Assembly: GCA_000806115.1 (NCBI GenBank)
Contig: JWKQ01000001.1
Coordinates: 217,784-281,783 of the forward strand
DNA from: an archaeon GW2011_AR5
Lineage (GTDB): Archaea; Aenigmatarchaeota; Aenigmatarchaeia; GW2011-AR5
Length of the DNA: 64,000 nt
Direction: 5' to 3'
Shown: one piece after another, positions 107-64,000 of the stretch
Numbering within the stretch: position 1 is the stretch's first letter
How the letters are laid out: the number at the start of each line of letters is the position of its first letter
Notes under the pieces: model-generated
The model's database searches: none
What the model was told of the DNA's origin: nothing
What the model saw: only the letters and a program-made list of their open reading frames with translations
Position numbers and translations under genes: made by a program

Positions 107-1102
107 TTATTTCGTAACAGAGCCGTAAACAGAAAACCCCCTTTTGGTGTCCCAACTTCCTACCAGCCTTACGGGACCGATGACTTTGCCTCCGCTGATC
201 TTATGGCTTGTTATTTCCTTGTCTGCTTTTCGCGAATGCTCGAATCCGTACCCTCCTATGAAACTGTCGTGCATGCAGAACCCTTCTGCGCTGTACATAG
301 CAGTCCTTGTTTCTTCGTTCCTTGAGAATCTCGGTGAAAATGCACACGCTCCCTGTTCGCTCAGGTGAGTGTTCTGCGGGGGAAGTATTGGGTGGTACGT
401 CCAGTATCTCGAGTGCACTATGGGCTGCTGAAGGAAATCGAACCTGTCGGCATCGAACGCGCCCCTCGTGTAGGGAAGATAGCGCCCGCCCAGTCTGACG
501 AACCCGAAAAGCGACTGAAGATTCCCGTCATTTGCATAAAAGAATTTTGCCAGGCCGTCCCTTGAATAGTAAAGCAGCACCTGATTTTTCTCACTGAACG
601 GTATTTTCAGCTCCTTGCCGAGGTTGTCCGTTCTTTTTGCAAGGCCTGCAGCGACATGATTCCTTCCAACATCCGACATTCCGCCGACGGTTACTGTCGA
701 TATGCCATTTGTATTTCCGTAACCGGCGAAAGCAGCATGATTCTTACTGATGTTGATTTTCGCATGTACCTCTGCCGACAAGCCTCCATTGAGATGCTCC
801 GCCCCGGTTCCCATCAGCAAAGGACCCTTTTCCTGTGTGAAATATATGCCCTGTTCTTCGATGTCTCCCGTGTTGCCTGCCGCTATTTTCAGCTTGCTCT
901 TTGAAAGCGGTATGAACGTGCCAAACGTGAATTTATCATCGCCTTCGTAGCATAACCTGATACGCGGATTCGGATTCCAGTAGCTTGCGCAAACGTATTT
1001 CTGACCGTCGGAATAATTTGTCGTTAGTTTTCCTGATTGGGCAGCTGCGGCAGCAGGAACCAAGCTTATTGCAAGAGCACCAAGGAGTTTCTTGAACTTC
1101 AT
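107..1102 (-). CDS. secreted hypothetical protein
   Basis: ORF 107..1126. The likely start is the internal ATG at 1100-1102, giving MKFKKLLGALAISLVPAAAAAQSG, a classic signal peptide. No family recognised. Confidence 0.7.
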   Translation of the reverse strand: MKFKKLLGALAISLVPAAAAAQSGKLTTNYSDGQKYVCASYWNPNPRIRLCYEGDDKFTFGTFIPLSKSKLKIAAGNTGDIEEQGIYFTQEKGPLLMGTGAEHLNGGLSAEVHAKINISKNHAAFAGYGNTNGISTVTVGGMSDVGRNHVAAGLAKRTDNLGKELKIPFSEKNQVLLYYSRDGLAKFFYANDGNLQSLFGFVRLGGRYLPYTRGAFDADRFDFLQQPIVHSRYWTYHPILPPQNTHLSEQGACAFSPRFSRNEETRTAMYSAEGFCMHDSFIGGYGFEHSRKADKEITSHKISGGKVIGPVRLVGSWDTKRGFSVYGSVTK

Positions 1103-1164
1103 TGAAGTTTCTTGTACAACCGGCATTTAAACAAGACGAACTCATTTTTGAAATAATAAGATTA

Positions 1165-1198
1165 GTGGTGGTATATCAACACCACAACTTTATAAATA
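1165..1198 (+). promoter_or_regulatory. palindrome GTGGTG-N9-CACCAC followed by a TATA-like box upstream of the TrmB-family gene
   Basis: GTGGTG at 1165-1170 and CACCAC at 1180-1185. TTTATAAATA at 1189-1198 lies about 20-29 nt before the ATG at 1218. Confidence 0.4.
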
Positions 1199-5724: not shown

Positions 5725-5795
5725 TATAGTGAACCCAGAAAATAAACAGGATATGAATTCTGGGTTCACAGATAGTTCCCAAGGAAATAATACAA
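5725..5795 (+). repeat. structured repeat family, copy A (3' half diverged)
   Basis: TATAGTGAACCCAGAA...TTCTGGGTTCACAGATAG matches copies at 27406, 30105 and 52396(-). Hairpin arms are 5729-5740 and 5758-5769. Confidence 0.6.
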
Positions 5796-6053
5796 GAAAG
5801 AACGAAGTTCTTTCTGTACGGCAAGAATCTTTGATTCTTGCTCGTATCCAGATTGTTTCCTTGGAGAACTATAAACGAACTCCGAATTTAAGGTTTTCCA
5901 GGCAACTGACATGTAAGAAAAGAGGCCGGTGTATGCCCTACCAATGGATTCAGCGGTTTTAGCGGAGAACGCATCATGCTTAGGCATTTTTCTATTTCTC
6001 AGAGCTTTTAATTGGCAAATCCATAATAATCAAAGGAGTGGATTGACATCGCA

Positions 6054-18268: not shown

Positions 18269-18275
18269 TACCGAT

Positions 18276-18296
18276 CTTTTTCTTTGGAAGAAAAAG
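18276..18296 (+). terminator. conserved T-rich hairpin 8 nt after the stop codon
   Basis: CTTTTTCTT 18276-18284 pairs with AAGAAAAAG 18288-18296 around the loop TGG. Almost the same sequence occurs at 59407 and 29388(-). Confidence 0.45.
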
Positions 18297-18330
18297 CTAG
18301 GTGTCCCAAAAAGAACTATAAGGTGATAAA

Positions 18331-18753
18331 ATGGAACTGCCGCTGAAAATAATTATAATTGTAGCGATACTGGCGCTTGTCCTTGTCCTGCTAAGCACGT
18401 ACTTCCTGCGCTCGAGCACCGAGTCTATAAGCAGGTCCGAGGCTGAGAGAATCTTCAATTCCGACTGCATCACGTACGCACAACGCGACTGCACATGGGA
18501 AGTAACCCGCGAGCCGGAGTTCGAGAACTATCTCAAGGCATGCAGGGTGCTCTACGGACCGTACAGGGAGGCTTATTCCTGCCTCTACTCGCTTTGCAAC
18601 GGATGTTTTGAGTCAATGGACCTCAAATGCAGCGGACTGTGCAAGATATGCAACGGGCACGATTACGCGAGCGTGGAGAGGGAAAGCTGCTGCCTGCGGT
18701 ACGGAAGCGAATGTTCCTCGAGCAGCGTCGACTGCACCGCCGCATGCCCTTAG
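18331..18753 (+). CDS. small N-terminally anchored cysteine-rich protein (MELPL family)
   Basis: MELPLKIIIIVAILALVLVLLSTYF is followed by 12 Cys. The SD-like GGTGAT lies 3 nt upstream of the ATG. It is a paralog of 25734..26105. Confidence 0.7.
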   Translation: MELPLKIIIIVAILALVLVLLSTYFLRSSTESISRSEAERIFNSDCITYAQRDCTWEVTREPEFENYLKACRVLYGPYREAYSCLYSLCNGCFESMDLKCSGLCKICNGHDYASVERESCCLRYGSECSSSSVDCTAACP

Positions 18754-27405: not shown

Positions 27406-27500
27406 TATAGTTAACCCAGAAAAGATTTCGGACATGAATTCTGGGTTAACAGATAGCTCACAAGAAAGTAATATACTGTTTACTTCCTTGTAGAGCTATA
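27406..27500 (+). repeat. structured repeat family, copy B
   Basis: 95 nt reading TATAGTTAACCCAGAAAAGATTTCGGACATGAATTCTGGGTTAACAGATAGCTCACAAGAAAGTAATATACTGTTTACTTCCTTGTAGAGCTATA. It forms two hairpins. Confidence 0.7.
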
Positions 27501-27514
27501 AGGGGGTAATTAAA

Positions 27515-30104: not shown

Positions 30105-30199
30105 TATAGTGAACCCACAAAAGATTTCGGACATGAATTGTGAGTTCACAGATAGCTCACAAGGAAGTAATACGCTGTTTATTTCCTTGTAGAGCTATA
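30105..30199 (+). repeat. structured repeat family, copy C
   Basis: 95 nt reading TATAGTGAACCCACAAAAGATTTCGGACATGAATTGTGAGTTCACAGATAGCTCACAAGGAAGTAATACGCTGTTTATTTCCTTGTAGAGCTATA. Confidence 0.7.
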
Positions 30200-30377
30200 A
30201 CCTGCGGCGCTCTTTGGTTCTTAGGAAGAAAACATCAACTTCTGTTCAATCAGAAAAAAATGAGCTCGAGGCAGAACAAAAAACGAAACAGAAAGGCGCT
30301 CCGACCTGTCAAGAAACGGCTTGCGTCTTTAATAACGGTTTTTGTGCAACCATCGAAAATTGGCGCGCTTACGGAAA

Positions 30378-51237: not shown

Positions 51238-51431
51238 GGGCTCGTGGTCTAATACAAATCCCTTCTTTGTAAAGAAGGTCTTTGTGAACCCCAAGAAACA
51301 GAGGGCTTCGCAAATATTAGGGATTTGTGGAGATTGGAATGACACTACGTTCGCATAACCTTTCCAGACCTCATGAAAACGGAAGGGTTCGAGGCACGTA
51401 GAGGCTCCGGGTTCAACTCCCGGCGAGTCCA
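51238..51431 (+). tRNA. tRNA-Ala(CGC) with two introns (82 nt in the D-loop, 51254-51335; 40 nt at 37/38, 51356-51395)
   Basis: Features: acceptor GGGCTCG/CGAGTCC with G3:U70; anticodon stem CTACG/CGTAG; loop TT-CGC-AA; T-arm CCGGG TTCAACT CCCGG. Exons total 72 nt and introns 122 nt, which equals the 194 nt observed. Confidence 0.75.
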
Positions 51432-51434
51432 TTT

Positions 51435-52083: not shown

Positions 52084-52217
52084 GGGCTCGTGGTCTAAAC
52101 TGGAAAAGCTTTTCTTTTGGCAGCAATGGAAAAGAACTATTATCCAGAGTGATGCTTCCATGGCATAGAGATTTTCGCCGAAGGAAGAGGCTCCGGGTTC
52201 AAATCCCGGCGAGTCCA
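52084..52217 (+). tRNA. tRNA-Ala(GGC) with two introns (44 nt at D-arm position about 21/22, 52106-52149; 16 nt at 37/38, 52166-52181)
   Basis: It has the same acceptor and T-arm as the other tRNA-Ala, including G3:U70. The anticodon stem is CTTCC/GGAAG and the loop is AT-GGC-AA. Exons of 74 nt plus introns of 60 nt equal the 134 nt observed. Confidence 0.75.
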
Positions 52218-52250: not shown

Positions 52251-52396
52251 TATGGCTCTACAAGGAAACAGTCTGACATTATTTCCTTGTAAGCTACAAG
52301 GTGAAGCTATGCTTCACCTGTACGGGAGAACCTTCGGTTCTCCCTGTATCTGCGAACCCAGAATTTATATCGGGATTCTTTTCTGGGTTCACTATA
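52251..52396 (-). repeat. structured repeat family, copy D (long variant with two extra internal hairpins)
   Basis: The minus-strand reading is TATAGTGAACCCAGAAAAGAATCCCGATATAAATTCTGGGTTCGCAGATA, then GGGAGAACCGAAGGTTCTCCC and GGTGAAGCATAGCTTCACC, then ...CTTACAAGGAAATAATGTCAGACTGTTTCCTTGTAGAGCCATA. Confidence 0.65.
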
Positions 52397-53939: not shown

Positions 53940-54026
53940 GGGACGGTAGCTTAGCCTGGTAGAGCACTTGACTGATATCGCATGTCAGAGATCAAGAGGT
54001 CGCCAGTTCAAATCTGGTCCGTCCCA
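53940..54026 (+). tRNA. tRNA-Ile(GAU) with a 13-nt intron at 37/38
   Basis: The reading is GGGACGG TA GCTT AGCCTGGTA GAGC A CTTGA CTGATA[TCGCATGTCAGAG]A TCAAG AGGTC GCCAG TTCAAAT CTGGT CCGTCCC A. Confidence 0.85.
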
Positions 54027-54032
54027 CTCATT

Positions 54033-54048
54033 TTTTTCTCCGGAAAAA
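54033..54048 (+). terminator. T-rich hairpin immediately after tRNA-Ile
   Basis: TTTTTC 54033-54038 pairs with GAAAAA 54043-54048 around the loop TCCG. A T7 run precedes it. Confidence 0.4.
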
Positions 54049-54113
54049 TATCCCAAAAACAATTACAAATGAATTACACGCCCTGACTCCGTCAGGTTTT
54101 TAAGCATTTACGG

Positions 54114-54545
54114 ATGAGTAGTAACATGAAAAAGCAGGGCAATGCAAATTCAAGCAAAATGTACGTGCTCCCGATAGCCATACTTTTTGGAATCCTCACG
54201 TTCAGCAGCGGACAGTACCAGAGCGGCTCAGGCGCCAACGCAAACCTTTTCCTGCAGCCTACCATGCCGATGTTCTCCAACCCCAGCGGACTGGGTTCAT
54301 TCTACTTTGCCGCATCGCCGGTGCGCGTGAATCCAACTTACAACATGAACCCGAGCAGCGCGTTCCTCAACATAAACTACAGGTCCAAGCTGCCGACTTC
54401 GCCGACATTCTTCTACGCACAGCCGTCGCCAGTGCTTGTGAAATACTCAGCCATAGGAACTCCAGTGCAGCCGATTTACTACACGCCGACGCGCGCGCTT
54501 TTCGGAGTGCGCTACACTTATGACAATTTCGGACAGGTTTGGTAA
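54114..54545 (+). CDS. secreted or anchored P/N/S/Y-rich hypothetical protein
   Basis: The hydrophobic segment MYVLPIAILFGILTFSSG follows a polar N-terminus. No family recognised. Confidence 0.55.
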   Translation: MSSNMKKQGNANSSKMYVLPIAILFGILTFSSGQYQSGSGANANLFLQPTMPMFSNPSGLGSFYFAASPVRVNPTYNMNPSSAFLNINYRSKLPTSPTFFYAQPSPVLVKYSAIGTPVQPIYYTPTRALFGVRYTYDNFGQVW

Positions 54546-54563
54546 GAGAACGCCTTAATTCTC

Positions 54564-55682
54564 ATGAATTCAAACAGATTAGACGTCTCCGGGATTGCAG
54601 CAAACCAGACAGGGTTACTTACCGGAGCATTTGACAGGTTTTTAATAACAAACTATTTTGACGCCATGCAAAAAGGACTGTTTTCAAAAGGTGGAATATA
54701 CGCGGCTATTGACGGACATGTCCGGAGGCCTGACAGCCTCTATTTTGAAGTTCCCGAAACAAAAGCGCATGACGTAGCAGGTTATATTGGAAGAACACTG
54801 CAGCAGCACGGCTCGGCGTATCTGAAGGATGTCACGACAACGGTCGGCGGAGGCTGCGGAGTGATTAAAATCTACGCCGACGACGACCATGTTCACCTGG
54901 TTATTCCGCATTCTGCAACGAGAGAAAGAATAGAGAGAAACCTTGGAAGCTTGCACGGCACGGAGGATTTCCTTTACTTTTTTGCGTCACATCATCTTTC
55001 AGAAAACCCAAGGAATGTCCGCATTCCAATATTGAGAACAAGAGCGGACCAGCCTGCAGGAAGAATATTCGATGTAATGGCTCGCAGAGTCCTGAACCCG
55101 GGCGAATATGCGGTTGAAGCGCCTATAAAAATCCCCCTTTACAACGGGAAGACGTGGGAGGTAAGAAACCTGGTGCAGTGCCCCGGAGGAATACCTTCAG
55201 TCACGGCACATTATACAAAAGTGGGCGCGGGAGCGGATTTCAGCAACCTGCTTCTTGGCGGGGAGGCGCACGATTCACTGGAAGTTTTGCGCGAAATTCA
55301 CAAACACGCCGAAAAACCCGAGTCGGCGGCCCTGGAATACCTGCATGAAAACAAAAGAACGGCGCTTGCGGCGGCGGATGCATTTGTTTCGTACTGCCGC
55401 AAACTGGCACTTACACATCTTGAAGGCACGGAAGCTGAACAATTCTATCCAAGAGAATTTTCAGTTGATGTAACAGGAGAGTTTTTTGACGGAACCTTGA
55501 GGCCTGTAGTCGGGGAACTGCAATATCCCCTCGGTTTCAACAGCTTTCGCGATTCCCTGCTTGAAGTGGACCCAGTCGCACTTGGAAGATTCGATGAAAT
55601 TCATGATTTCATGATGCGCCATGACTCCGAACTTTTTCTGAATTTGGCTGCAAGGGCTGAAAAGACGACATCAACCCTTTAA
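54564..55682 (+). CDS. hypothetical protein (372 aa)
   Basis: A long ORF with coding-like composition. No motif recognised. Confidence 0.65.
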   Translation: MNSNRLDVSGIAANQTGLLTGAFDRFLITNYFDAMQKGLFSKGGIYAAIDGHVRRPDSLYFEVPETKAHDVAGYIGRTLQQHGSAYLKDVTTTVGGGCGVIKIYADDDHVHLVIPHSATRERIERNLGSLHGTEDFLYFFASHHLSENPRNVRIPILRTRADQPAGRIFDVMARRVLNPGEYAVEAPIKIPLYNGKTWEVRNLVQCPGGIPSVTAHYTKVGAGADFSNLLLGGEAHDSLEVLREIHKHAEKPESAALEYLHENKRTALAAADAFVSYCRKLALTHLEGTEAEQFYPREFSVDVTGEFFDGTLRPVVGELQYPLGFNSFRDSLLEVDPVALGRFDEIHDFMMRHDSELFLNLAARAEKTTSTL

Positions 55683-55850
55683 AACATTTAAATACTTTCT
55701 TTTTCAAGTTTAGTTTGCTCTCATGACTGGATATATGCCGAACGGTCAGAAATCGTTTGGCTTATTTCTGCAGTTAACTACGTACTAGTCGAGAGACTAG
55801 AGTCATGACTCGGGAAAATCGGAAATTAATGCTTAGACAGAGGTACGAGA

Positions 55851-56801
55851 ATGCCCAAGAGAACAAGACCGCGACACGGGTCGCTTCAGTACTGGCCGCG
55901 CAAACGCGCGAAGCGCATAGTCACACGGACGCGCCACTGGGCTCCGTCAAAGGACGCAAAGCCGCTGGGCTTTGCCGGATGGAAAGCCGGAATGACGCAC
56001 GTTCAACTGGTTGACCAGAACAGCAAGTCACCGACTTTCGGCAAGACAATCGTCAAGCCGGTGACGGTCCTGGACGCTCCTTCTCTCTTTGTTGCTGCAA
56101 TTCGCTTTTACAAAACTTCCTTCAACGGAGACCGCGCCGTCGGCGAAAAATGGTCGAAGCTTCCGAAAGACATCAAGCTGAAGCTCAAGACAGACATCAA
56201 GTCAGAAATGCCAAAGGAATTTGATAATATTACTCTCGTGGTTGCCACACAGCCGGCTAAAAGCGGCATGAGGCAGATAAAGAGCGACCTTTTCGAGATA
56301 GGAATCGGCGGAACCAGCGACCAGAAGCTTGCCTACGCAGACTCAGTTCTTGGCAAGGAGATAAACGCAAAGGATATTTTCAAGCCGGGAGAGTTTGTTG
56401 ACGCTTCCGCAGTCACGAAAGCGTTCGGCTTCACGGGCCCTGTAAAGAGGTTCGGCATCAGGATACAAACAAGAAAAGACAAGCAGATGCACCGACATGT
56501 TGGAAGCATTGGAAGCACAGTGCCCCGTCACATAGATTGGAGGGTTCCGGCAGCCGGACAACATGGATTTCACACACGTACTGACTTCACAAAAAAATTG
56601 ATAATGATCGATGACGCTTCGAAAGTTACTCCATCCGGCGGATTTGTCGGCTATGGCTTGCCGAAATCAGTAATACTTATAGAGGGTTCAGTTCCCGGGC
56701 CAAGAAAAAGGCTGGTAAGGATAAGGAAGGCTGCAAGGGACTCGAGAACAATCCCGATTGACGTAAAGTACATCTCAGTCGAGAGCAAGCAGGGGAAATA
56801 A
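55851..56801 (+). CDS. rpl3: 50S ribosomal protein L3 (uL3)
   Basis: MPKRTRPRHGSLQYWPRKRAKR...GFAGWKAGMTHV. Confidence 0.95.
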   Translation: MPKRTRPRHGSLQYWPRKRAKRIVTRTRHWAPSKDAKPLGFAGWKAGMTHVQLVDQNSKSPTFGKTIVKPVTVLDAPSLFVAAIRFYKTSFNGDRAVGEKWSKLPKDIKLKLKTDIKSEMPKEFDNITLVVATQPAKSGMRQIKSDLFEIGIGGTSDQKLAYADSVLGKEINAKDIFKPGEFVDASAVTKAFGFTGPVKRFGIRIQTRKDKQMHRHVGSIGSTVPRHIDWRVPAAGQHGFHTRTDFTKKLIMIDDASKVTPSGGFVGYGLPKSVILIEGSVPGPRKRLVRIRKAARDSRTIPIDVKYISVESKQGK

Positions 56802-56803
56802 TC

Positions 56804-57004
56804 ATGTCAGAATTAATGGGCGATTTGTGGTGCGGAATGGGCAACGGAAAAAGGTTCGTCATAGGCACCGTTCCTGTCGACATGCCGGTCGGCTATCACA
56901 GAAAAGGCGCAGTGAAAATAGGCATGGTAGTTTACGGGTCATCGGACACTGACGTGAAACAAAAAATCGGCAGGAAATATCCGGCAGCAGAAATTGCAGA
57001 GTGA
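56804..57004 (+). CDS. 66 aa unknown protein inserted between rpl3 and rpl4
   Basis: It fills the whole 208-nt gap. It starts at TAATCATG, 2 nt after the rpl3 stop, and ends in the conserved GAGTGATAATCATG junction before rpl4. Confidence 0.5.
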   Translation: MSELMGDLWCGMGNGKRFVIGTVPVDMPVGYHRKGAVKIGMVVYGSSDTDVKQKIGRKYPAAEIAE

Positions 57005-57009
57005 TAATC

Positions 57010-57798
57010 ATGAAAGCAAAAGTTTACGACATGAAAGGGACACAGACGTCGGAAGTGGAACTGCCCGGCGTATTCAGCACGCCTTACAGGCCGGACGTCA
57101 TAAAGCGCGCAGTGCTCGCGCAGCAGTCGGCGAAGCGCCAACCTTACGGCACAGACCCGCTCGCAGGTCTGCGCTCCTCAGCCCACTACCACGGCTCGCG
57201 GCACTACAGATACGCCATGATGAACAAGGAGATGTCAAGGATGCCCCGAATACACGGCAAGGTAGGCTACATGGCGTGGAGGGCGCGCGTTGCTCCGCAG
57301 GCAGTGAAGGGGCGAAGAGCGCACCCGCCAAAGGCGCAGAAGATATGGCTCCAGAAGATAAATCAACAGGAACGCAATCTTGCCATCCGGTCCGCCCTTG
57401 CAGCCTCAACCAGCCCGGAACTGCTGAAGATGAGGGGACACACCCACAAGTCGCCGATAATATTTACAGATGATTTTGACAACGTGAAAAGCACGAAGGA
57501 AGTGTACGGACTGCTGGAGAAGGTTGCGGGCGCGGAACTCGAGAGGGCTGAGAAGAGGAAGGTTCGCGCAGGCAAGGGGAAGATGAGAGGCAGGCGGTAC
57601 CAGCAAAAGAAAGGACCGCTAGTGATACTTCCGAAAACCTGCCCCGCAATAAAGGCGTCAAGGAACATACCCGGAATCGACGCAATCTCGGTGAGCAACA
57701 TCAACGTCGAGCTGCTCGCGCCGGGCACGCAGGCGGGAAGGCTTATAATCACAACGAAGTCCGCCATTGAAGCGCTTCAAAAAAGATTTGGTGAATGA
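57010..57798 (+). CDS. rpl4: 50S ribosomal protein L4 (uL4)
   Basis: MKAKVYDMKGTQTSEVELPGVFSTPYRPDVIKRAVLAQQSAKRQPYG. The ATG at 57010 follows the GTGATAATC junction. Confidence 0.93.
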   Translation: MKAKVYDMKGTQTSEVELPGVFSTPYRPDVIKRAVLAQQSAKRQPYGTDPLAGLRSSAHYHGSRHYRYAMMNKEMSRMPRIHGKVGYMAWRARVAPQAVKGRRAHPPKAQKIWLQKINQQERNLAIRSALAASTSPELLKMRGHTHKSPIIFTDDFDNVKSTKEVYGLLEKVAGAELERAEKRKVRAGKGKMRGRRYQQKKGPLVILPKTCPAIKASRNIPGIDAISVSNINVELLAPGTQAGRLIITTKSAIEALQKRFGE

Positions 57799-57800
57799 TA

Positions 57801-58202
57801 ATGGCAAAAGAAAACGACAAAAAAGCCGAAGAGAAGACAAAGCTGCCTGCAAAGGAAGCGAAGCCGAAAGAGGTAAAAAGCGCCAAGCCTGCAAAGAAAA
57901 AGCAGGAAAAGGAGATACCGAAGGCGGACGCAAAAGCTGTGTCGGACGCTTTCGACATCGTAAAGTTCGTGCTGATGACTGAAAAGTCAATCAGGATGGT
58001 TGAGAGCCAGAACAAGCTCGTATTCATAGTGAACCGGTCGTCAAAAAGGAACCAGATAAGGAAGTCAATAGAACACGCGTTCGGCTCACCCGTGTCCGGC
58101 ATCTCGATTGTCATAGACCAGTCGGGAAGGAAGAAGGCGTTCGTGAAGTTCAGCAACCCGGGCGCCGCGGGCGACATCGCGATAAAATTGGGAGTCATAT
58201 AA
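57801..58202 (+). CDS. rpl23: 50S ribosomal protein L23 (uL23) with a Lys/Glu/Ala-rich N-terminal extension of about 50 aa
   Basis: The core is FDIVKFVLMTEKSIRMVESQNKLVFIVNRSSKRNQIRKSIEHAFG. The N-terminus is MAKENDKKAEEKTKLPAKEAKPKEVKSAKPAKKKQEKE. Confidence 0.9.
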   Translation: MAKENDKKAEEKTKLPAKEAKPKEVKSAKPAKKKQEKEIPKADAKAVSDAFDIVKFVLMTEKSIRMVESQNKLVFIVNRSSKRNQIRKSIEHAFGSPVSGISIVIDQSGRKKAFVKFSNPGAAGDIAIKLGVI

Positions 58203-58222
58203 AGTAATAATCACGAAGACCA

Positions 58223-58290
58223 AAGGTCGAGTCTGAACCCTTTCTTGGGGTTAAGACCTAGACCTTCTTTCGGGAAAGAAGGGATTGGTA
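58223..58290 (+). ncRNA. structured intercistronic element, copy 1 (rpl23/rpl2 junction)
   Basis: Hairpin A is AACCC 58236-58240 with GGGTT 58248-58252. Hairpin B is CCTTCTTT 58263-58270 with AAAGAAGG 58275-58282. It ends in GGGATTGGTA directly before ATG 58291. The copy is about 85 percent identical, by eye, to 62942-63005. Confidence 0.5.
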
Positions 58291-59004
58291 ATGGGAAAGA
58301 ATCTTAGACAGCAGAGAAGGGGCAAGGGAAGCCCAAGATACAGCGCACATTCGCACAGGTACGACGGCAAAACCAGATACTCCGACGTTCAGGGCGAAGG
58401 CGTAGTCGTCGACATAGTCCACTCGCCCGGCAGGAGAGTGCCGGCTGCCGTTGTAGATTACAAGCATACAGACGCCAAAGGCGTCATCAGCTGGCGAAAA
58501 AGTCTGATGCTCCCGGCCGAGGGTTTGTTCGTCGGGCAAAAAATATCCAACACAAACGAGACTGGAAACATCACGCACCTCAAAAACCTCCCGGAAGGAA
58601 CCAAGATATTCAATATTGAACTTCATCCCGGGGACGGCGGCAGGCTCTGCAGGGCGTCCGGGAGCTTTGCCACTATAATTTCAAAAGATGTAAACAACTG
58701 CACGGTGCTTATGCCGTCGAGGGAGAAAAAAGTCATATCCACAGACTGCCGCGCGACTGTCGGCATCGGCGCATCCTCGGGACGCACCGAGAAGCCGTTC
58801 ATGAAGGCGGGAACGAAGCACTACTCAATGAAGGCGCTCGGCAAGCTCTATCCTCACGTGCAGGGCGTATCGATGAACGCATGCAACCACCCGTTCGGCG
58901 GACAAACAAGGCCGGGCAAGCCGAAGACGGTGTCGCGCCACATGCCTCCCGGCAAGAAAGTCGGAAGCATATCGCCGAAGAGAACCGGCAAGAGAAAGAA
59001 GTGA
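58291..59004 (+). CDS. rpl2: 50S ribosomal protein L2 (uL2)
   Basis: MGKNLRQQRRGKGSPRY...HPFGGQTRPGKPKTVSR. The ATG at 58291 is preferred over the TTG at 58285. Confidence 0.95.
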   Translation: MGKNLRQQRRGKGSPRYSAHSHRYDGKTRYSDVQGEGVVVDIVHSPGRRVPAAVVDYKHTDAKGVISWRKSLMLPAEGLFVGQKISNTNETGNITHLKNLPEGTKIFNIELHPGDGGRLCRASGSFATIISKDVNNCTVLMPSREKKVISTDCRATVGIGASSGRTEKPFMKAGTKHYSMKALGKLYPHVQGVSMNACNHPFGGQTRPGKPKTVSRHMPPGKKVGSISPKRTGKRKK

Positions 59005-59010
59005 TGAATA

Positions 59011-59400
59011 ATGGCAAAGATTTACAAATTCCGGGGCAAGACGCAGGAAGAACTCGAAGCGATGAGCCTTGAGGAGTTCTCCGGGCTGCTCAAATCAAGG
59101 CAGCGAAGGGCGCTGAGGAGAGGGCTTCCGAAGCAGCAGAAGAAGCTCCTTGAAAAGATAAGGAAGCAGAAAGGCAAGGACAAGCTGATCAGGACGCACT
59201 CGCGGGAAATGATAATACTTCCGGAGATGGTAGGCGCCAAGCTCGGGATTCACAACGGAAGGGAATTCGTCATGGTTGTAATAGACTCAAGCATGCTGGG
59301 ACACAGGCTCGGCGAGTTCAGCCAGACAAGGAAGAAGGTGCAGCACAGCGCACCCGGACTGGGAGCAACACGCTCGTCCAAGTTCGTGCCGCTGAAGTAA
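59011..59400 (+). CDS. rps19: 30S ribosomal protein S19 (uS19)
   Basis: Features: [24 protein letters not shown] and [12 protein letters not shown]. Confidence 0.95.
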
Positions 59401-59406
59401 GTGAGC

Positions 59407-59425
59407 TTTTCTTTGGAAAAGAAAA
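59407..59425 (+). terminator. conserved T-rich hairpin 6 nt after the rps19 stop
   Basis: TTTTCTTT 59407-59414 pairs with AAAGAAAA 59418-59425 around the loop GGA. Confidence 0.45.
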
Positions 59426-59466
59426 TCTCAATCAAAAGAAACATAATAATATGATGGTGGAATAAG

Positions 59467-60060
59467 ATGACAACAAAGCAAAAAACAAGCCCGGGGCAGA
59501 CTTTCGTGCCTGGACATAACTATGCAAGGGCTTTCGGCACAAGCATGAGGATATCGCAGAAGTCCGCCTCGATCGTGTGCAAGGCAATAAAGAACAAGCC
59601 GCTCACGCGCGCGAAGCGCCTGCTGGAAGACCTCAAGGCGGAAAGGCGTACGCTGGGCGGGAAATATTATTCCAAGGCTGTAAAGAACATGCTCATGCTG
59701 CTCAACAGCTGCGAGAAGAACGCGGAGTTCAAAGGACTTGACGCCGACAGGCTTTTCGTCCACGCGTCGGCGCACAAGGGCGCCAACGTTCGAAGGCGCA
59801 GGAGAAAGGGCGCGTTCGGCTCGACCATGAAGAACACCAACATGGAGATACTGCTCATAGAGCGCGGGAAGGAGCGCAAGGACAAGGTTTCGAAGAAGAA
59901 AGTGAAGGAACAGATGACAAAGAAGCCGACGGCTGCCGAGCAGGAAATCCGCGCGGAGAAGGAAGAAACAAAGAGGGAACTTGAGAGGCTGAAGGAAGAA
60001 CAGAAAGAGCTGCTGAAGGATGTGGAAGAGGCTGAAATGAAATCGGCTGCAAAAGAGTGA
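59467..60060 (+). CDS. rpl22: 50S ribosomal protein L22 (uL22) with a Lys/Glu-rich C-terminal extension
   Basis: ARAFGTSMRISQKSASIVCKAIKNKPLTRAKRLLEDL. The tail is KKKVKEQMTKKPTAAEQEIRAEKEETKRELERLKEEQKELLKD. Confidence 0.9.
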   Translation: MTTKQKTSPGQTFVPGHNYARAFGTSMRISQKSASIVCKAIKNKPLTRAKRLLEDLKAERRTLGGKYYSKAVKNMLMLLNSCEKNAEFKGLDADRLFVHASAHKGANVRRRRRKGAFGSTMKNTNMEILLIERGKERKDKVSKKKVKEQMTKKPTAAEQEIRAEKEETKRELERLKEEQKELLKDVEEAEMKSAAKE

Positions 60061-60065
60061 TAATC

Positions 60066-60770
60066 ATGAAAGAAAGACTTTTCATAGCAAAATCGAAGGA
60101 ACACGTCAAGCTTGAGGAATTCGTAAGAAAGCAGTTTGCCCAGGCGAAGTGCGGTTCCATTGAGGTGCAGTACACGCCCGTCGTGACGAGGATAATACTC
60201 CACACCACCACGCCCGGGCTCATAATCGGCAGCGGCGGGGAACGAATAAAGGAGACGGTCGAACTCATCAAGAAGGAGTTCAAGATAGACAATCCCCAGA
60301 TTGACGTGCAGAGAATAGAGGACCCGGACATCGACCCGATAATAATCGCGCAAACCCTCGCGGCGTCAATAGAGAGCGGGGTGAACTTCAAGAAGCTCGG
60401 GAACTTCTACCTCCAGCGCATAATGGAAGCGGGCGCAATCGGCTGCGAGATAGTGCTTTCAGGAAAGATCAGCGGGCAGCGCGGAAGGCGGGAAAGATTC
60501 GTAGCAGGATACCTGAAGAAGTGCGGCGAGCCGGCAAAGCGCGATGTGCTGAAGGGCTTCGCGGTGGCAAACCCAAAGCTCGGGAACATAGGAATAACGG
60601 TGAAAATCATGCTGAAGAGGACGGAACTTTCGATGAACATAAAAAAGCCCGAAGCTCCCAAGGAAGAGCCGAAGGCTGAGAAGGAAGCGCCTCCGAAAGA
60701 ACCTTCAAAAGAAGAGCCTGCCACAGAGCAGACAGAACAGATAGTGAACGAAGAGGGAACAGAGGAATAA
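60066..60770 (+). CDS. rps3: 30S ribosomal protein S3 (uS3)
   Basis: MKERLFIAKSKEHVKLEEFVRKQF...PGLIIGSGGERIKE contains the KH domain. The ATG at 60066 follows GTGATAATC. Confidence 0.93.
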   Translation: MKERLFIAKSKEHVKLEEFVRKQFAQAKCGSIEVQYTPVVTRIILHTTTPGLIIGSGGERIKETVELIKKEFKIDNPQIDVQRIEDPDIDPIIIAQTLAASIESGVNFKKLGNFYLQRIMEAGAIGCEIVLSGKISGQRGRRERFVAGYLKKCGEPAKRDVLKGFAVANPKLGNIGITVKIMLKRTELSMNIKKPEAPKEEPKAEKEAPPKEPSKEEPATEQTEQIVNEEGTEE

Positions 60771-60772
60771 TC

Positions 60773-60979
60773 ATGGCGATACTCAAGGCAAAGAAGATCC
60801 GGGAAATGAACGAGAAGGACATAGCGGAAAAAATGAAGGAGCTCCACCTGGAACTGTCAAAGGAAATGGCGTCCAGTGAGATAGGAAGCTCGGTGAAAAA
60901 CCCGGGAAGAATCCATGAGATAAAGAGAACGATTGCAAGGATAAAGACGATTGAAGGAAAAAAAGCGGTTAAACAATAA
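60773..60979 (+). CDS. rpl29: 50S ribosomal protein L29 (uL29)
   Basis: MAILKAKKIREMNEKDIAEKMKELHLELSKE...IKRTIARIKTI. Confidence 0.9.
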   Translation: MAILKAKKIREMNEKDIAEKMKELHLELSKEMASSEIGSSVKNPGRIHEIKRTIARIKTIEGKKAVKQ

Positions 60980-60987
60980 TGAGGTGA

Positions 60988-61299
60988 TTGAAGATAGCAG
61001 TTTGTCCCAAATGCGGATTGCCAATGGAACTGTGCGTATGCCAGACCATAGCAAAGGAGGCGCAGAAGATACGCGTCGAGATGGTACAGAAGCGCTATGG
61101 AAAGAGCATGACGATCATCAGGGGAATAGACACGGGCAAGATTGATGTCAGGGACCTGATGAAGAAGCTGAAGTCGAAGCTGGCTTGCGGCGGAACGTAC
61201 AAGAACAACGAAATAGAGCTCCAGGGCGATCACCGCGACCAGGTCAGGGAGATACTCGTGAAGGAAGGATTCCCGAGGGACATAATAGAGGTTTCGTAA
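60988..61299 (+). CDS. sui1: translation initiation factor aSUI1 (eIF1 homolog), apparent TTG start
   Basis: KIAVCPKCGLPMELCVCQTIAKEAQKIRVEMVQKRYGKSMTIIRGID...ACGGT. The frame opens immediately after a TGA at 60985-60987, so TTG 60988 is the first possible start. Confidence 0.88.
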   Translation: MKIAVCPKCGLPMELCVCQTIAKEAQKIRVEMVQKRYGKSMTIIRGIDTGKIDVRDLMKKLKSKLACGGTYKNNEIELQGDHRDQVREILVKEGFPRDIIEVS

Positions 61300-61563
61300 A
61301 TGAGGAACGCCGGCAACATACTCCGCCACGAGCTGATAGGGCTGAGATGCAAAGTGGTAAAGTCGAAGAACGCCACCCAGGCGGGCATTGAAGGAAAGAT
61401 CGTTGACGAGACCATGAAAACTGTTATAATTGACGGCAAAAGGGTCCAGAAGAAGGGCAGCGTATTCAGCGTGGCGCTTGGCGCGAAGCGCGTCGAGATT
61501 GACGGGAATTACCTGCTATCGCGCCCCGAGGACCGGATAAAGAAGAAGATATCAAAATGGTAA
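61300..61563 (+). CDS. rnp1: RNase P protein component 1 (Rpp29/Pop4 homolog)
   Basis: The call rests on LRHELIGLRCKVVKSKNATQAGIEGKIVDETMKTVII and on the conserved position between sui1 and rps17. Confidence 0.85.
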   Translation: MRNAGNILRHELIGLRCKVVKSKNATQAGIEGKIVDETMKTVIIDGKRVQKKGSVFSVALGAKRVEIDGNYLLSRPEDRIKKKISKW

Positions 61564-61573
61564 AGTGATGATA

Positions 61574-61909
61574 ATGGCAAAGAAAAAGAAAACAATCGGA
61601 ATCGAGGCGAAGCAGCCGAAGGAAGACTGCGGCAGCGGGAAGTGCCCGTGGCACGGACACACGAAGATACGCGGCAGAGTGTTTATCGGCAAGGTCGTGT
61701 CCTCAAAAGCTGCGAACACCGCCATCGTTCAGTGGGACTACTACACGCTGGTGCCGAAGTACGAGCGGTACGAGAGGAGAAAGACGAGGATAGCCGCGCA
61801 CAACCCGAAATGCATCTCGGCAAAAACCGGCGACATGGTGCGCATAGGGGAATGCCGCCCGCTGTCTAAGTCAAAAGCGTTTGTAATATTTGAGAAGGTG
61901 ACTGAGTAA
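61574..61909 (+). CDS. rps17: 30S ribosomal protein S17 (uS17)
   Basis: Features: CPWHGHTKIRGRVFIGKVVSSK and GDMVRIGECRPLSKSKAFV. The ATG at 61574 follows GTGATGATA. Confidence 0.92.
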   Translation: MAKKKKTIGIEAKQPKEDCGSGKCPWHGHTKIRGRVFIGKVVSSKAANTAIVQWDYYTLVPKYERYERRKTRIAAHNPKCISAKTGDMVRIGECRPLSKSKAFVIFEKVTE

Positions 61910-62094
61910 TGGCAATATGCAGATACGTTGGAAAATTTGCCGGAGACGGAACAAGGGTTACAAGAAGAGAACTGAGAAGAGCGTACCAAAGGCATGAAGA
62001 GTACCTAAGAATGCTATACGGAAACGACATTGGAAACATAAACCAGCCCAAACCCAGAAGTTCCTATCCGCGACACGAAACTCAGAGGCAGTGA
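61909..62094 (+). CDS. 61 aa basic unknown protein inserted between rps17 and rpl14
   Basis: MAICRYVGKFAGDGTRVTRRELRRAYQRHEEYLRMLYGNDIGNINQPKPRSSYPRHETQRQ. Its ATG overlaps the rps17 TAA (TAATG). It ends in the CAGTGATAATCATG junction before rpl14. Confidence 0.5.
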   Translation: MAICRYVGKFAGDGTRVTRRELRRAYQRHEEYLRMLYGNDIGNINQPKPRSSYPRHETQRQ

Positions 62095-62099
62095 TAATC

Positions 62100-62501
62100 A
62101 TGAAAGGATTAACTTCAAAGATGACGAGGCCGCTTCCGCTGGGAGCCAGGCTTGTTTGCGCCGACAATTCGGGCGCGAAGGAGCTTGCAATCATAGCCGT
62201 GAAAGGCTATCACGGACGCATCAGGAGACTGCCCCGCGCCGGAGTCGGCGACGTCGTTATCTGCTCGGTGAAAAAAGGGAAGGAAAAGGTCAGGCATACC
62301 GTCGTGCATGCCGTGATCGTCCGCCAGAAGAAAGAGTACATGAGATACGACGGCACGCGCGTGAAGTTCAGCGACAACGCGGCAGTGGTGGTCAACCCGA
62401 AGACGTACGAGCCGACCGGTACTGAGGTGCGGAGCGTTATCGCTAAGGAAGTCGTGGAAAGATTCACGGTAATAGGAAAAATCGCAAGCATGGTGTTGTA
62501 A
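62100..62501 (+). CDS. rpl14: 50S ribosomal protein L14 (uL14)
   Basis: LPLGARLVCADNSGAKELAIIAVKGYHGR...AVVVN. Confidence 0.95.
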   Translation: MKGLTSKMTRPLPLGARLVCADNSGAKELAIIAVKGYHGRIRRLPRAGVGDVVICSVKKGKEKVRHTVVHAVIVRQKKEYMRYDGTRVKFSDNAAVVVNPKTYEPTGTEVRSVIAKEVVERFTVIGKIASMVL

Positions 62502-62503
62502 TT

Positions 62504-62929
62504 ATGAAAGAATTTTCAGTAAAATGGATCTCGAGCAAGCAGCCCAGGAAGCAGAGAAAATACCGTTATAACGCTCCGATGCACGTCAGGCAGCGGCTCG
62601 TGAGCGCGCATCTCGAGAAAATGCTCCGCAAAGAATACGGCAAGAGGTCGCTTACCGTGAGGAAGGGCGACGAAGTCAGGATAATGACCGGGCAGTTCCG
62701 CGGCACGCGCGGCAAAGTATCGCGCGTGGACATGAAGGCGCTGAAGGTTTACGTCGAGAACGCAAAGATGAAGAAGGTCTCCGGGCAGGAAGTGGAAGTT
62801 GCAATAGACCCGAGCAACATAATGATAACAAAGCTGAACTTCGACGACAAGAGAAGAAGGAAGTTCATAATCAGGAAAGGCAAGAAGCAGGAAACGAAAG
62901 AAACCGGAGGAAAGGCAAAGGGAAAATAA
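62504..62929 (+). CDS. rpl24: 50S ribosomal protein L24 (uL24)
   Basis: Features: SKQPRKQRKYRYNAPMHVRQRL and VRKGDEVRIMTGQFRGTRGKV. Confidence 0.92.
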   Translation: MKEFSVKWISSKQPRKQRKYRYNAPMHVRQRLVSAHLEKMLRKEYGKRSLTVRKGDEVRIMTGQFRGTRGKVSRVDMKALKVYVENAKMKKVSGQEVEVAIDPSNIMITKLNFDDKRRRKFIIRKGKKQETKETGGKAKGK

Positions 62930-62941
62930 TATCCGAAACCG

Positions 62942-63005
62942 AAGGTTGAGTCAAACCCTTCTTTGGGGTAAGACCTAGACCTTTCTTCGGAAGAAAGGGA
63001 TTGGT
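62942..63005 (+). ncRNA. structured intercistronic element, copy 2 (rpl24/rps4e junction)
   Basis: Hairpin A is ACCC 62955-62958 with GGGT 62966-62969. Hairpin B is CCTTTCTT 62980-62987 with AAGAAAGG 62991-62998. It ends in GGGATTGGT directly before ATG 63006. Confidence 0.5.
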
Positions 63006-63683
63006 ATGGCAGTAACAAAAAGATACAACGCACCGAAATTCTGGGCAGTGAAGACGAAGGAAAAGAAATACGTAGTCACGCCGGCATCGGGCCCGCACAG
63101 CAAGTTCGAGTGCATACCTCTCGGCATAACTCTGAGGGACATACTCGGGCACGCGAGGACGATGAACGAGTCCAGGAGCATACTGCTCTCTGGCACCGTT
63201 AAGGTTAACAACATTGTCAGGAAAGAACACAACTTCCCGGTCGGACTAATGGACACGCTTGACATTGGCGGGGACTTTTACAGGGTGGTGCCATCAAAGA
63301 AGGGGCTCATGATACTCAAGATTGACGGCGACGCGGACATCAAGCTCGCGAAAATCGACAACAAAACTTCGGTGAGCGGTGGCAAAACCCAGCTCAACTT
63401 CCACGACGGAACCAACATGCTTGTGGAGAAGGGCGACTACAAGACTTCGGACGTCGTCGCAATAGACACCCGCCACAGCAAAATCACGGAGACAATAAAG
63501 TTCGAGAAGGGCAGCTTCGCCGTGGTAACGGGCGGCAACAACACGGGCTTCAAGGGAACAATAGAGTTCATTGACAGAGTCCTCAAGACTGTCGTGATGG
63601 CAGCCGGCGACACCAAGCTTCTGGTCCCGATAAGGTACGTGTTCGTTGTTGGAAAAACGTCGCCTCTTGTAAACATCGGATGA
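63006..63683 (+). CDS. rps4e: 30S ribosomal protein S4e (eS4)
   Basis: MAVTKRYNAPKFWAVKTKEKKYVVTPASGPHSKFECIPLGITLRDIL. Confidence 0.93.
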   Translation: MAVTKRYNAPKFWAVKTKEKKYVVTPASGPHSKFECIPLGITLRDILGHARTMNESRSILLSGTVKVNNIVRKEHNFPVGLMDTLDIGGDFYRVVPSKKGLMILKIDGDADIKLAKIDNKTSVSGGKTQLNFHDGTNMLVEKGDYKTSDVVAIDTRHSKITETIKFEKGSFAVVTGGNNTGFKGTIEFIDRVLKTVVMAAGDTKLLVPIRYVFVVGKTSPLVNIG

Positions 63684-63740
63684 ACTTTGCAGCAGAAAAA
63701 TAATGAAAGGTGAAACAAAAACGGAAAATAAGGGATTGAT

Positions 63741-64000
63741 ATGGGAATGAGAGACATCAGGATTGAAAAGGTAACACTGAACATAGGATGCGGGACGAAG
63801 ACCCCGCTGGAAACTGCGAAGACAGTCCTAAAGAACGTTTCCGGCGGAAAGGTCGTGCTTACCAAGACGAAGAAGCGAAGCACGTTCAACGTCCCCAAGA
63901 ACAAGGCAATCGGCTGCAAGATCACGCTCAGGAAGAACACGGAAAGCTTCCTGAAGAGGCTGTTCGAAGCCAAGGAGAACAGGCTCCGCGCGACGAACTT
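63741..64000 (+). CDS. rpl5: 50S ribosomal protein L5 (uL5), 5' part (runs off the window)
   Basis: Hand translation gives MGMRDIRIEKVTLNIGCGTKTPLETAKTVLKNVSGGKVVLTKTKKRSTFNVPKNKAIGCKITLRK.... It is absent from the ORF track because there is no stop inside the window. Confidence 0.85.
   Translation, partial: MGMRDIRIEKVTLNIGCGTKTPLETAKTVLKNVSGGKVVLTKTKKRSTFNVPKNKAIGCKITLRKNTESFLKRLFEAKENRLRATN

Follow-up and report, generated by a model that had tools for sequence, protein, structure and literature searches.

The intrastrand triplex repeats of bacteria have been on record since 2000, to our knowledge with no function found for them and with little comparative evidence that the third strand matters. 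The closest described counterparts of the element considered here, the PIT/BoxC/TM_ECO repeats of ITxF class IV, are multi-copy intergenic sequences that carry three matched homopurine/homopyrimidine tracts on one strand and occur at variable loci (Hoyne and Maher 2000; Holder et al. 2015, PMC4666352). By the definitions given in PMC4666352, class IV has the order Hoogsteen pyrimidine, Watson-Crick pyrimidine and purine, with the complementary strand falling into class II; the loops between the tracts span 0-10 nucleotides (nt) in Hoyne and Maher and 1-6 nt in ITxF; and a pyrimidine-motif triplex can form in RNA, while the purine motif of the opposite strand cannot. The present analysis concerns a 64,000-nt stretch (hereafter the window) of the genome of archaeon GW2011_AR5, in which two spacers of the ribosomal protein (r-protein) operon, from uL23 to uL2 and from uL24 to eS4, are filled by copies of a repeat with the same class IV order of tracts.

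The two spacers are members of one family, which is present at some orthologous junctions and absent from others, takes the place of Shine-Dalgarno spacers, and covaries both between two tracts and among three. They probably belong to an intergenic repeat with a triplex-type core that exists in many copies across a lineage of DPANN archaea, as opposed to a regulatory site of this operon, which a preliminary description of the sequence had listed among its candidates. The repeat is distinguished from the PIT/BoxC kind by its linker of 15-19 nt, against loops of up to 6-10 nt in the published searches as reported in PMC4666352, by an outer helix that covaries and a tandem G.A loop that is invariant, by tracts that are A/T-rich with a single C/G and not G/C-rich, and by its DPANN hosts, in which many copies end on a start codon and replace a Shine-Dalgarno spacer. 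Its value lies in the comparative evidence that it supplies, with tracts in triple-helix register across four spacing classes, approximately 200 copies and several DPANN lineages. A literature search returned no description of this repeat family.

ERIC/IRU, BOX, RUP and Correia/NEMIS, small intergenic repeats of bacteria that are co-transcribed with genes, are likewise short, structured and multi-copy, lie within operons, are variably present at orthologous sites and can supply expression signals. The archaeal repeat differs from these bacterial families, which are reviewed in PMC10969869, in its triplex-type core and in having neither terminal inverted repeats nor target-site duplication. Those two absences are common to the equally hairpin-based REP/BIME-RAYT and PATE / IS200-IS605 derivatives, from which the repeat departs in lacking a cognate Y1 (HUH) transposase in five high-copy genomes. 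Elements of the ENE / MALAT1 type (PMC7583470, PMC13541005) offer a different parallel, with a predicted major-groove U.A-U run broken by one C+.G-C, and ENEs are also carried by transposable elements; an ENE, however, is a U-rich internal loop that clamps a 3' A-tract, whereas the repeat would lay a 5' third strand on a hairpin, is prokaryotic and has no poly(A) partner.

The Two Copies in the Ribosomal Protein Operon

The window belongs to a 0.86-Mb DPANN genome in three contigs (G000; 87.6% complete), which was searched together with its relatives by BLAST, iterated nhmmer and a covariance model, R1. The S10/spc-type operon was extracted from 37 relatives and each of its spacers was measured; the names of the operon genes and of those flanking the repeats were checked with Pfam.

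The spacers at 58203-58290 and 62925-63005 are about 79% identical. They align as had been reported, over about 80 nt, beginning some 20 nt further 5' than was claimed, from the AT-rich AATAAT box that adjoins the upstream stop codon down to the start codon of the next gene; the repeat is the only sequence between stop codon and ATG and so takes the position of the next cistron's leader, and the uL24 stop codon TAA (62927-62929) falls within the AATAATAT box of the second copy. Chance would give 0.01 occurrences in the window of the 20-nt core, GGGGTNAAGACCTAGACCTT, which is present twice. The observation that both copies end at a start codon was also confirmed, GGT being followed directly by the ATG at 63006 in copy 2 and GGTA by the ATG at 58291 in copy 1. 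The related motif noted before uL5, TAAGGGATTGATATG at 63729-63743, is real and represents a degenerate 3' remnant of the repeat (AAGGGATTGATATG); the eS4>uL5 spacer measures 57 nt by the coordinates of the open reading frames (ORFs), or 66 nt by an approximate measure, against 13 nt in four congeners. The other cistrons of the operon do use (G)GTGAT, found 4-8 nt before the ATG. The predicted folding energies of the two window copies are only modestly beyond those of shuffled sequences (z = -1.9 and -2.0).

A Dispersed Family in the Genome and Its Relatives

In G000, 14 matches were obtained with BLAST, about 27 with nhmmer and 26 with the covariance model, and scores of 76-95 bits make it unlikely that the genome-wide matches are alignment artefacts. 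By the covariance model, 29 of 40 relatives carry 1-30 copies in a patchy distribution (overall range 0-30), and across the phylum matches were found in 31 of 201 genomes, mostly in the window genome's own family. The core pattern is also present in metagenome-assembled genomes (MAGs) labelled Aenigmatarchaeota, Micrarchaeota, Pacearchaeota and Woesearchaeota. The assignment of the element to the r-protein operon did not survive this census, the roughly 26 copies of the genome lying before unrelated genes, in reverse at gene ends and within a tRNA insert. Three further copies reside in the same operon just past the end of the window, one before uL6, one before eL19 and a third, partial and inverted, in the uL5-uS14 interval.

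Nineteen of the 27 copies in G000 end on the ATG of the downstream gene. These genes, as identified with Pfam, encode uL2, eS4, uL6, eL19, eS1 (S3Ae), aIF2-beta, aEF1-beta, Rpo4, ThiI, Sua5, PAC2, DUF424, a Na/H exchanger, a T2SSE ATPase, a polysaccharide flippase and unknowns. Across genomes, 32 of 43 matches adjoin start codons, many of them of r-protein or RNA polymerase genes. About eight G000 copies are 3' halves whose end adjoins the stop codon of a gene on the opposite strand, and some copies contain extra nested hairpins.

Such a set of downstream genes, in G000 and across genomes alike, would suit a dedicated cis-regulatory leader, in which a trans-acting protein or signal binds the G.A loop or the pyrimidine box described below, both of them invariant, and in which mutually exclusive folds act as a switch to coordinate the translation of r-protein genes and others of information processing. 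A regulon of this kind is nonetheless rather unlikely. Copies are found reversed, at gene ends and inside the tRNA insert; the core stands away from start codons in other DPANN phyla; and presence at a single junction differs among congeners, just as the junction that is occupied differs by genome. The autoregulatory leaders of r-protein operons (e.g. the L1, L10 and S8 sites) are likewise structured RNAs directly upstream of r-protein cistrons, yet the repeat is neither conserved by site nor operon-specific, and a scan of 54000-64000 against Rfam, with its r-protein leader models, gave no match to any family at E<=10.

Presence and Absence at Orthologous Junctions

The operon spacers are hypervariable among relatives. 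Twelve genomes across the order have a tight uL23>uL2 spacer of 2-14 nt; the spacer is filled by the repeat in G000, G001, G002, G006 and G011, and by unrelated small ORFs in G003, G007, G008 and G010. These last inserts (loci L048, L051, L052 and L053) are ORF-like sequences of 250-430 nt, each then followed by its own GTGAT Shine-Dalgarno, and the uL23/uL2 junction can be regarded as an insertion hot spot. At uL24>eS4, the repeat is confined to G000 and G002, and the site is empty in three of the four other congeners with an assembled junction. The conservation in relatives that a site-specific element called for is thus missing: spacers of 2 nt in G005, 18 nt in G006 and 65 nt in G003 hold no element and are of GGTGA(T) type, with GGTGA or GGTGATAATT ahead of the same ATGGCAGTAACA start. 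The repeat was found at nine different junctions of this one operon across genomes. By the yardstick of the preliminary description itself, conservation of the spacers in relatives, an operon-specific reading is refuted.

Pairs of filled and empty sites, namely uL24>eS4 (G002 against G003/G006), uL22>uS3 (G006 against G002), uS8>uL6 and uS17>uL14, reveal that a Shine-Dalgarno spacer of 11-12 nt has been replaced, with no target duplication. Copies within a genome are 79-81% identical, compared with 68-76% for orthologous sites across genomes. In addition, two more perfect hairpins, GAGCCTTTTTCTTTGAGGAAAGAAAAAGCCTC and GGCGAACTGGCGTTCGC, lie 5' of the repeat at uS8>uL6 (G000:C1:282400-282760; locus L083 7352-7538), where congeners have a 12-nt spacer.

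The AT-rich box at the 5' end bears on the proposal that the repeat is an internal promoter or terminator cassette, with the AATAATAT box as its TATA box and T-rich tracts as terminators that split the operon. Conservation of the AT-only tract, some 80 nt upstream of the ATG, does extend to sites that have no ORF end next to it, and TTT(T) follows the hairpin in some phyla. The box, however, coincides with stop codons that belong to upstream genes, an identical AATAAT context is also found at sites devoid of the repeat, most copies lie 0-134 nt behind a co-directional gene, and PIT elements had no promoter or terminator activity in E. coli according to work cited in PMC4666352, so that a cassette of this sort is very improbable. 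The uL22 reading frame of G006 extends into the TAATAA of the repeat and ends in the AT-rich box. The 5' consensus, AAATAATATTTGAAGACAAGGTCTAGA (e.g. G000:C1:282744-282775), holds TAA, TGA and TAG in three different frames, and an upstream ORF that enters the 5' part of the repeat stops in any frame.

The means of dispersal was sought in the repeat itself and in its hosts. [quoted passage not shown] The Y1 transposase (PF01797) is absent from G000 (26 copies), G001 (21), G011 (23), G021 (30; 97% complete) and G026 (15), an absence to be read with the incompleteness of these MAGs in mind, and no mobilising gene for the repeat was found among these genomes with 15-30 copies. PF01797 is present in some low-copy congeners and does not correlate with copy number, and mobilisation of the RAYT/IS200 type was rejected on account of this independence. 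Carriage by viruses was likewise rejected, three core patterns having yielded no match in IMG/VR contigs.

Insertion in any orientation and context is what one would expect of a selfish or structural repeat acting at the level of DNA, similar to the PIT/BoxC kind, in which a triplex or hairpin, arising in single-stranded DNA at replication or recombination, would promote its spread or local rearrangement and any effect on flanking genes would be tolerated. The hypervariable operon spacers match the link between triplexes and genome instability drawn by Holder et al. 2015 (PMC4666352), and the stems described below are nearly pure Watson-Crick helices with no wobble bias. Against a purely DNA-level element stand the essential genes at filled sites, which have lost their Shine-Dalgarno sequences so that the 3' end of the repeat must support initiation, the leader copies that end exactly at an ATG (19 of 27 in G000 and 32 of 43 across genomes), and the lack of a mobilising gene, including the absence of the Y1 transposase from five genomes with 15-30 copies. 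It is an unlikely explanation of the family as a whole.

Secondary Structure of the Repeat

The preliminary description had recognised a swap of two adjacent base pairs in hairpin B, and this is real, the stem being CCTTCTTT/AAAGAAGG in copy 1 and CCTTTCTT/AAGAAAGG in copy 2. The covariation that was called double is in fact triple, with the loop of hairpin A included. RNAalifold and pair counts support an extended hairpin B, in which an inner stem of 9 bp is followed by an internal loop, TAGA/GAT(Y), that is invariant and made up of one A-U pair and a tandem G.A, and then by a 3-bp outer helix; the latter varies between 3 and 4 bp, covaries freely and has a 3' strand that ends 0-1 nt before the ATG. 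Within hairpin B, 97.1% of cells are paired (97-99% across sets) and compensatory change affects 9 of 13 pairs (8-9 across sets), values that were reached in none of 500 shuffles; the view of a structured, recurrent element with compensatory change is therefore upheld. In an independent set of 69 copies, retrieved by a pattern from which the outer helix had been left out, this helix was about 98% paired and used AU, CG, GC and UA. The pairs of the inner stem have exclusively a pyrimidine on the 5' arm and a purine on the 3' arm, and the AGAC/GGAT tandem G.A and the box are invariant across the family.

Hairpin A fared differently. It can be drawn in both window copies (AACCC/GGGTT and ACCC/GGGT), as had been claimed, but across the family its pairing equals that with shuffled partners (best stems 4.85 vs 4.61), and its status as a conserved helix was rejected. 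A mirror relation to hairpin B better explains why its loop is conserved. A second candidate, helix P1, pairs the 5' AAGGTCTAG with the central CTAGACCTT; 74% of its positions are paired, in a count for which the alignment puts the GAGTC subfamily one column out of place, and its covariation is modest. As modelled, helix P1 is a real alternative fold, weaker than hairpin B. The predicted lowest-energy folds divide 18 to 14 between two mutually exclusive helices, a division that would be compatible with the regulatory switch considered above. The helices contain five G.U pairs against seven A.C mismatches, and this lack of G.U excess tells against that same regulon.

Two known motifs were considered for the internal loop and both were rejected. 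A K-turn, as bound by L7Ae, combines a 3-nt bulge with tandem sheared G.A pairs, flanked by one canonical and one non-canonical stem; the tandem G.A is invariant here, but the symmetry of the loop (TAGA/GATY) leaves no 3-nt bulge, whichever way it is read. An archaeal bulge-helix-bulge intron requires two 3-nt bulges, one per strand, on either side of a 4-bp helix; such staggered bulges could not be drawn, the unpaired bases of hairpin B facing each other.

Three-Way Covariation and a Predicted Triple-Helix Architecture

The most conserved piece of the repeat, TTCTTT(T)GGGG in the loop of hairpin A, is the mirror image of the pyrimidine arm of hairpin B. In general form, the box reads T^b' C T^a and then GG, the pyrimidine arm CC T^a C T^b and the purine arm A^b G A^a GG. 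The value a' of the box equals a in 102 of 103 copies, against a mean of 63 and a maximum of 79 with shuffles, and the classes of a are 2 (5 copies), 3 (17), 4 (78) and 5 (2). The two values also agree in 91 of 93 copies of an independent metagenome set, for which a = 2 or 3 in hairpin B was the sole criterion of selection.

As the mirror of the pyrimidine arm, the box is therefore parallel-complementary to the purine arm. A parallel Hoogsteen-compatible run (T over A, C over G) of at least 6 is present in 81 of 87 copies, with a mean of 7.08 compared with 5.34 for shuffled partners, a median of 7 and a maximum of 10; the run is 6 in each window copy, where the class asks for at least 6-7 positions. 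In copy 1, the box CTTTCTT lies over GAAAGAA and in copy 2 CTTCTTT over GAAGAAA, the C of the second box being shifted by one position relative to the first, as in both arms of hairpin B, so that the two-pair swap is repeated in a third tract. The order of the tracts is box, pyrimidine arm and purine arm, 5' to 3', in both window copies and throughout the family. The arms are separated by a loop of 3-5 nt, and the box is joined to the pyrimidine arm by a G-rich linker of 15-19 nt that partly takes part in the outer helix.

The covariation of three tracts points to a triple helix and not to two independent hairpins, and the predicted architecture is an intrastrand pyrimidine-motif triple helix of T.A-T and C+.G-C, of ITxF class IV (PIT/BoxC kind); base triples lie outside the ViennaRNA folding model. 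The constraint of a triplex fits the inner stem, with its strict polarity of pyrimidines and purines, and it also fits the retention of the box in copies that have no 5' arm of hairpin A. Two other accounts of the box were rejected. Watson-Crick pairing would give a longest antiparallel run with the purine arm of mostly 5, shorter than the parallel register, and the consensus contains no tract complementary to the box; an origin of the box as a direct repeat was excluded by the copies where a differs from b, in which a' follows a and not b.

Translation Signals and the Proposed Mechanism

The 3' end of the 16S rRNA is GGAUCACCUCCUUU, by which GTGAT is an ordinary Shine-Dalgarno sequence. The 16S rRNA gene of G000 (contig C2, ~610-1180, minus strand) carries an insert of about 530 nt with an ORF after AAGTCGTAAC, near the 3' end, which resembles an intron of the homing-endonuclease type; the true 3' end, GGATCACCTCCTTT, lies beyond the insert.

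Two conserved spots of the repeat are complementary to the 16S tail. The first, GGGGT(G)A in the linker, gives predicted duplexes of -5.9 to -6.1 kcal/mol in the window copies, about -10.6 kcal/mol in an example copy of subfamily II and -12 kcal/mol at best in the family. The second, AAGGGAT(Y)G (AAGGGATTG), gives -6.0 kcal/mol and places GGGAT 4 nt from the ATG, like the native GTGAT. For comparison, the predicted anti-Shine-Dalgarno duplexes of native junctions in the same operon amount to -5.3 to -6.0 kcal/mol. As GGTGAT has been lost while the essential downstream genes keep their N-termini, initiation at the filled sites must, to judge from the sequences, use the repeat. The concrete consequence is that uL2, eS4, uL6, eL19 and other essential genes would have to start translation from within it, because the copies occupy the former Shine-Dalgarno spacer.

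In the folded form of hairpin B, 1 nt would separate the end of the linker from the helix, and 0-1 nt would separate the helix from the ATG behind it. Such a geometry recalls the split ribosome-binding sites of T4 genes 25 and 38 (PMC3014915): here too, a hairpin lies between a Shine-Dalgarno-like sequence (GGGGTGA/GGGGTAAG) and the AUG, and its base would bring both within 1-2 nt. Unlike the T4 sites, the role of the repeat is predicted from geometry, its Shine-Dalgarno-like tract in the window is weak, a second GGGAT stands at normal spacing inside the hairpin, and the repeat is dispersed, not a device of a single gene.

In sum, the repeat has a core of about 55 nt that comprises, on one strand, the pyrimidine box, the G-rich linker of 15-19 nt, the pyrimidine arm, a short loop and the purine arm. 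The arms form hairpin B, which the TAGA/GAT(Y) loop and the outer helix extend to within 0-1 nt of the ATG, and the leader-type copies of the G000 lineage add the AT-rich stop-codon box and a purine-rich segment able to pair alternatively with the pyrimidine arm. These copies have replaced native Shine-Dalgarno spacers of 2-18 nt between cistrons; in the proposed mechanism they would be co-transcribed in the operon mRNA and would constitute the translation-initiation region of uL2 and eS4. Initiation may proceed via GGGAT at the native 4-nt spacing, or via the G-rich linker held beside the AUG by the hairpin. The sense RNA or the single-stranded DNA may fold into a triple helix, and the fold may affect mRNA stability, translation or local DNA stability.

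The boldest form of this proposal holds that the sense transcript adopts a major-groove RNA triple helix of 6-10 U.A-U / C+.G-C triples, with the linker single-stranded beside the AUG, and that the repeat is a portable translation-initiation cassette. If true, this would be the first RNA triple-helix family in archaeal mRNAs, and a cassette that responds to structure, with pH, Mg2+ or temperature as possible further influences, would have captured the ribosome-binding sites of essential r-protein cistrons. We consider it a tentative and rather doubtful possibility. Several points weigh against the probable reading given at the outset, that of a dispersed repeat with a triplex-type core. The window copies allow only six triples, one of them a C+.G-C that needs protonation, and no intrastrand triplex motif described so far has a linker as long as 15-19 nt. 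The triplex would face competition from hairpin A and helix P1, and nothing marks the sense RNA over the DNA as the selected strand, G.U pairs being no commoner than A.C mismatches. The covariation figures are tallies of sequences and not of separate events; a minimum of three independent changes of a is required. Lastly, the role of leader seems to be one context among several, since only 21 of 79 copies in a broad metagenome set adjoin the start of a gene on the same strand, the remainder comprising nine at gene ends on the opposite strand, 11 followed by a T-arm-like GAACC and 38 in other contexts.

The family raises the questions of whether a triplex forms in RNA and of how a ribosome starts beside a very stable fold. 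It also counsels caution: where two copies of a repeat differ by compensatory changes, these alone are no sign of a regulatory RNA specific to one locus.

Features of the Window and Neighbouring Observations

The coordinates of the copies and their parts are collected in Table 1.

Table 1. Repeat copies in the window and their component parts (window coordinates)
Feature	Position	Strand	Remarks
Copy 1 of repeat	58203-58290	+	Whole spacer from uL23 stop (58200-58202) to uL2 ATG (58291-58293); 76.7 bits, model R1
Copy 1, AT-rich 5' box GTAATAAT	58204-58211	+	Family consensus AATAATAT; has stop codons
Copy 1, purine-rich 5' segment GAAGACCAAAGGTCGAG	58215-58231	+	Can pair with central segment as alternative helix P1
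Copy 1, pyrimidine box CTTTCTT	58240-58246	+	Loop of hairpin A; mirror of hairpin B pyrimidine arm; candidate Hoogsteen third strand over GAAAGAA
Copy 1, linker GGGGTTAAG	58247-58255	+	Complementary to the anti-Shine-Dalgarno, as one of two such spots; -5.9 kcal/mol
Copy 1, extended hairpin B	58256-58289	+	Outer helix ACC/GGT (58256-58258 with 58287-58289)
Copy 1, hairpin B interior		+	Loop TAGA/GATT with tandem G.A; stem CCTTCTTT/AAAGAAGG (58263-58270 with 58275-58282); loop CGGG
Copy 2 of repeat	62925-63005	+	83.2 bits, model R1; ends at eS4 ATG (63006-63008)
Copy 2, P1 5' strand AAGGTTGAG	62942-62950	+	
Copy 2, pyrimidine box CTTCTTT	62958-62964	+	Parallel register with GAAGAAA of purine arm
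Copy 2, linker GGGGTAAG	62965-62972	+	Anti-Shine-Dalgarno duplex, -6.1 kcal/mol
Copy 2, extended hairpin B	62973-63005	+	Outer helix ACC/GGT (62973-62975 with 63003-63005)
Copy 2, hairpin B interior		+	Loop TAGA/GATT; stem CCTTTCTT/AAGAAAGG (62980-62987 with 62991-62998); loop CGG
Degenerate 3' remnant TAAGGGATTGAT	63729-63740	+	Before uL5 ATG (63741)
Copy of a=2 type, outer helix ACA/TGT	51251-51342	-	Inside long insert of tRNA-like gene 51238-51432; 45.2 bits
Degenerate gene-end-type copy	18267-18360	-	3' end adjoins stop codon of opposite-strand ORF; 41.9 bits

The adjacency of the repeat to tRNA sequences is regarded as a lead. At loci L154, L130, L119, L118, L153 and L141, from MAGs labelled Micrarchaeota, the 3' module is directly followed by (T)GAACCC, which resembles the reverse complement of a tRNA T-arm. 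Among 12 loci labelled Micrarchaeota (one Anstonellaceae), ARAGORN detected an adjacent or overlapping tRNA in two only, L102 and L107.

Within the window, the tRNA genes at 51238-51432 (+) and 52084-52217 (+) have common acceptor ends, GGGCTCG...CGAGTCCA. The gene at 52084-52217 scores 35.4 bits with the Rfam tRNA model and contains inserts of 50 nt in the D-loop region and of 23 nt in the anticodon loop. The tRNA-like gene at 51238-51432, which was missed by both Rfam and ARAGORN, has an insert of about 150 nt that holds the reverse-oriented copy of the repeat. At 53940-54027 (+), ARAGORN predicted an 88-nt tRNA with no identity assigned and a four-base anticodon, 'gata', which may be another intron-bearing tRNA. 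Finally, a different family of hairpin repeats, GAACCCAGAAAA...TTCTGGGTTCAC followed by a common tail of about 50 nt, has three to four copies in the window, at 5725-5820, 27406-27501, 30105-30200 and 52354-52392.

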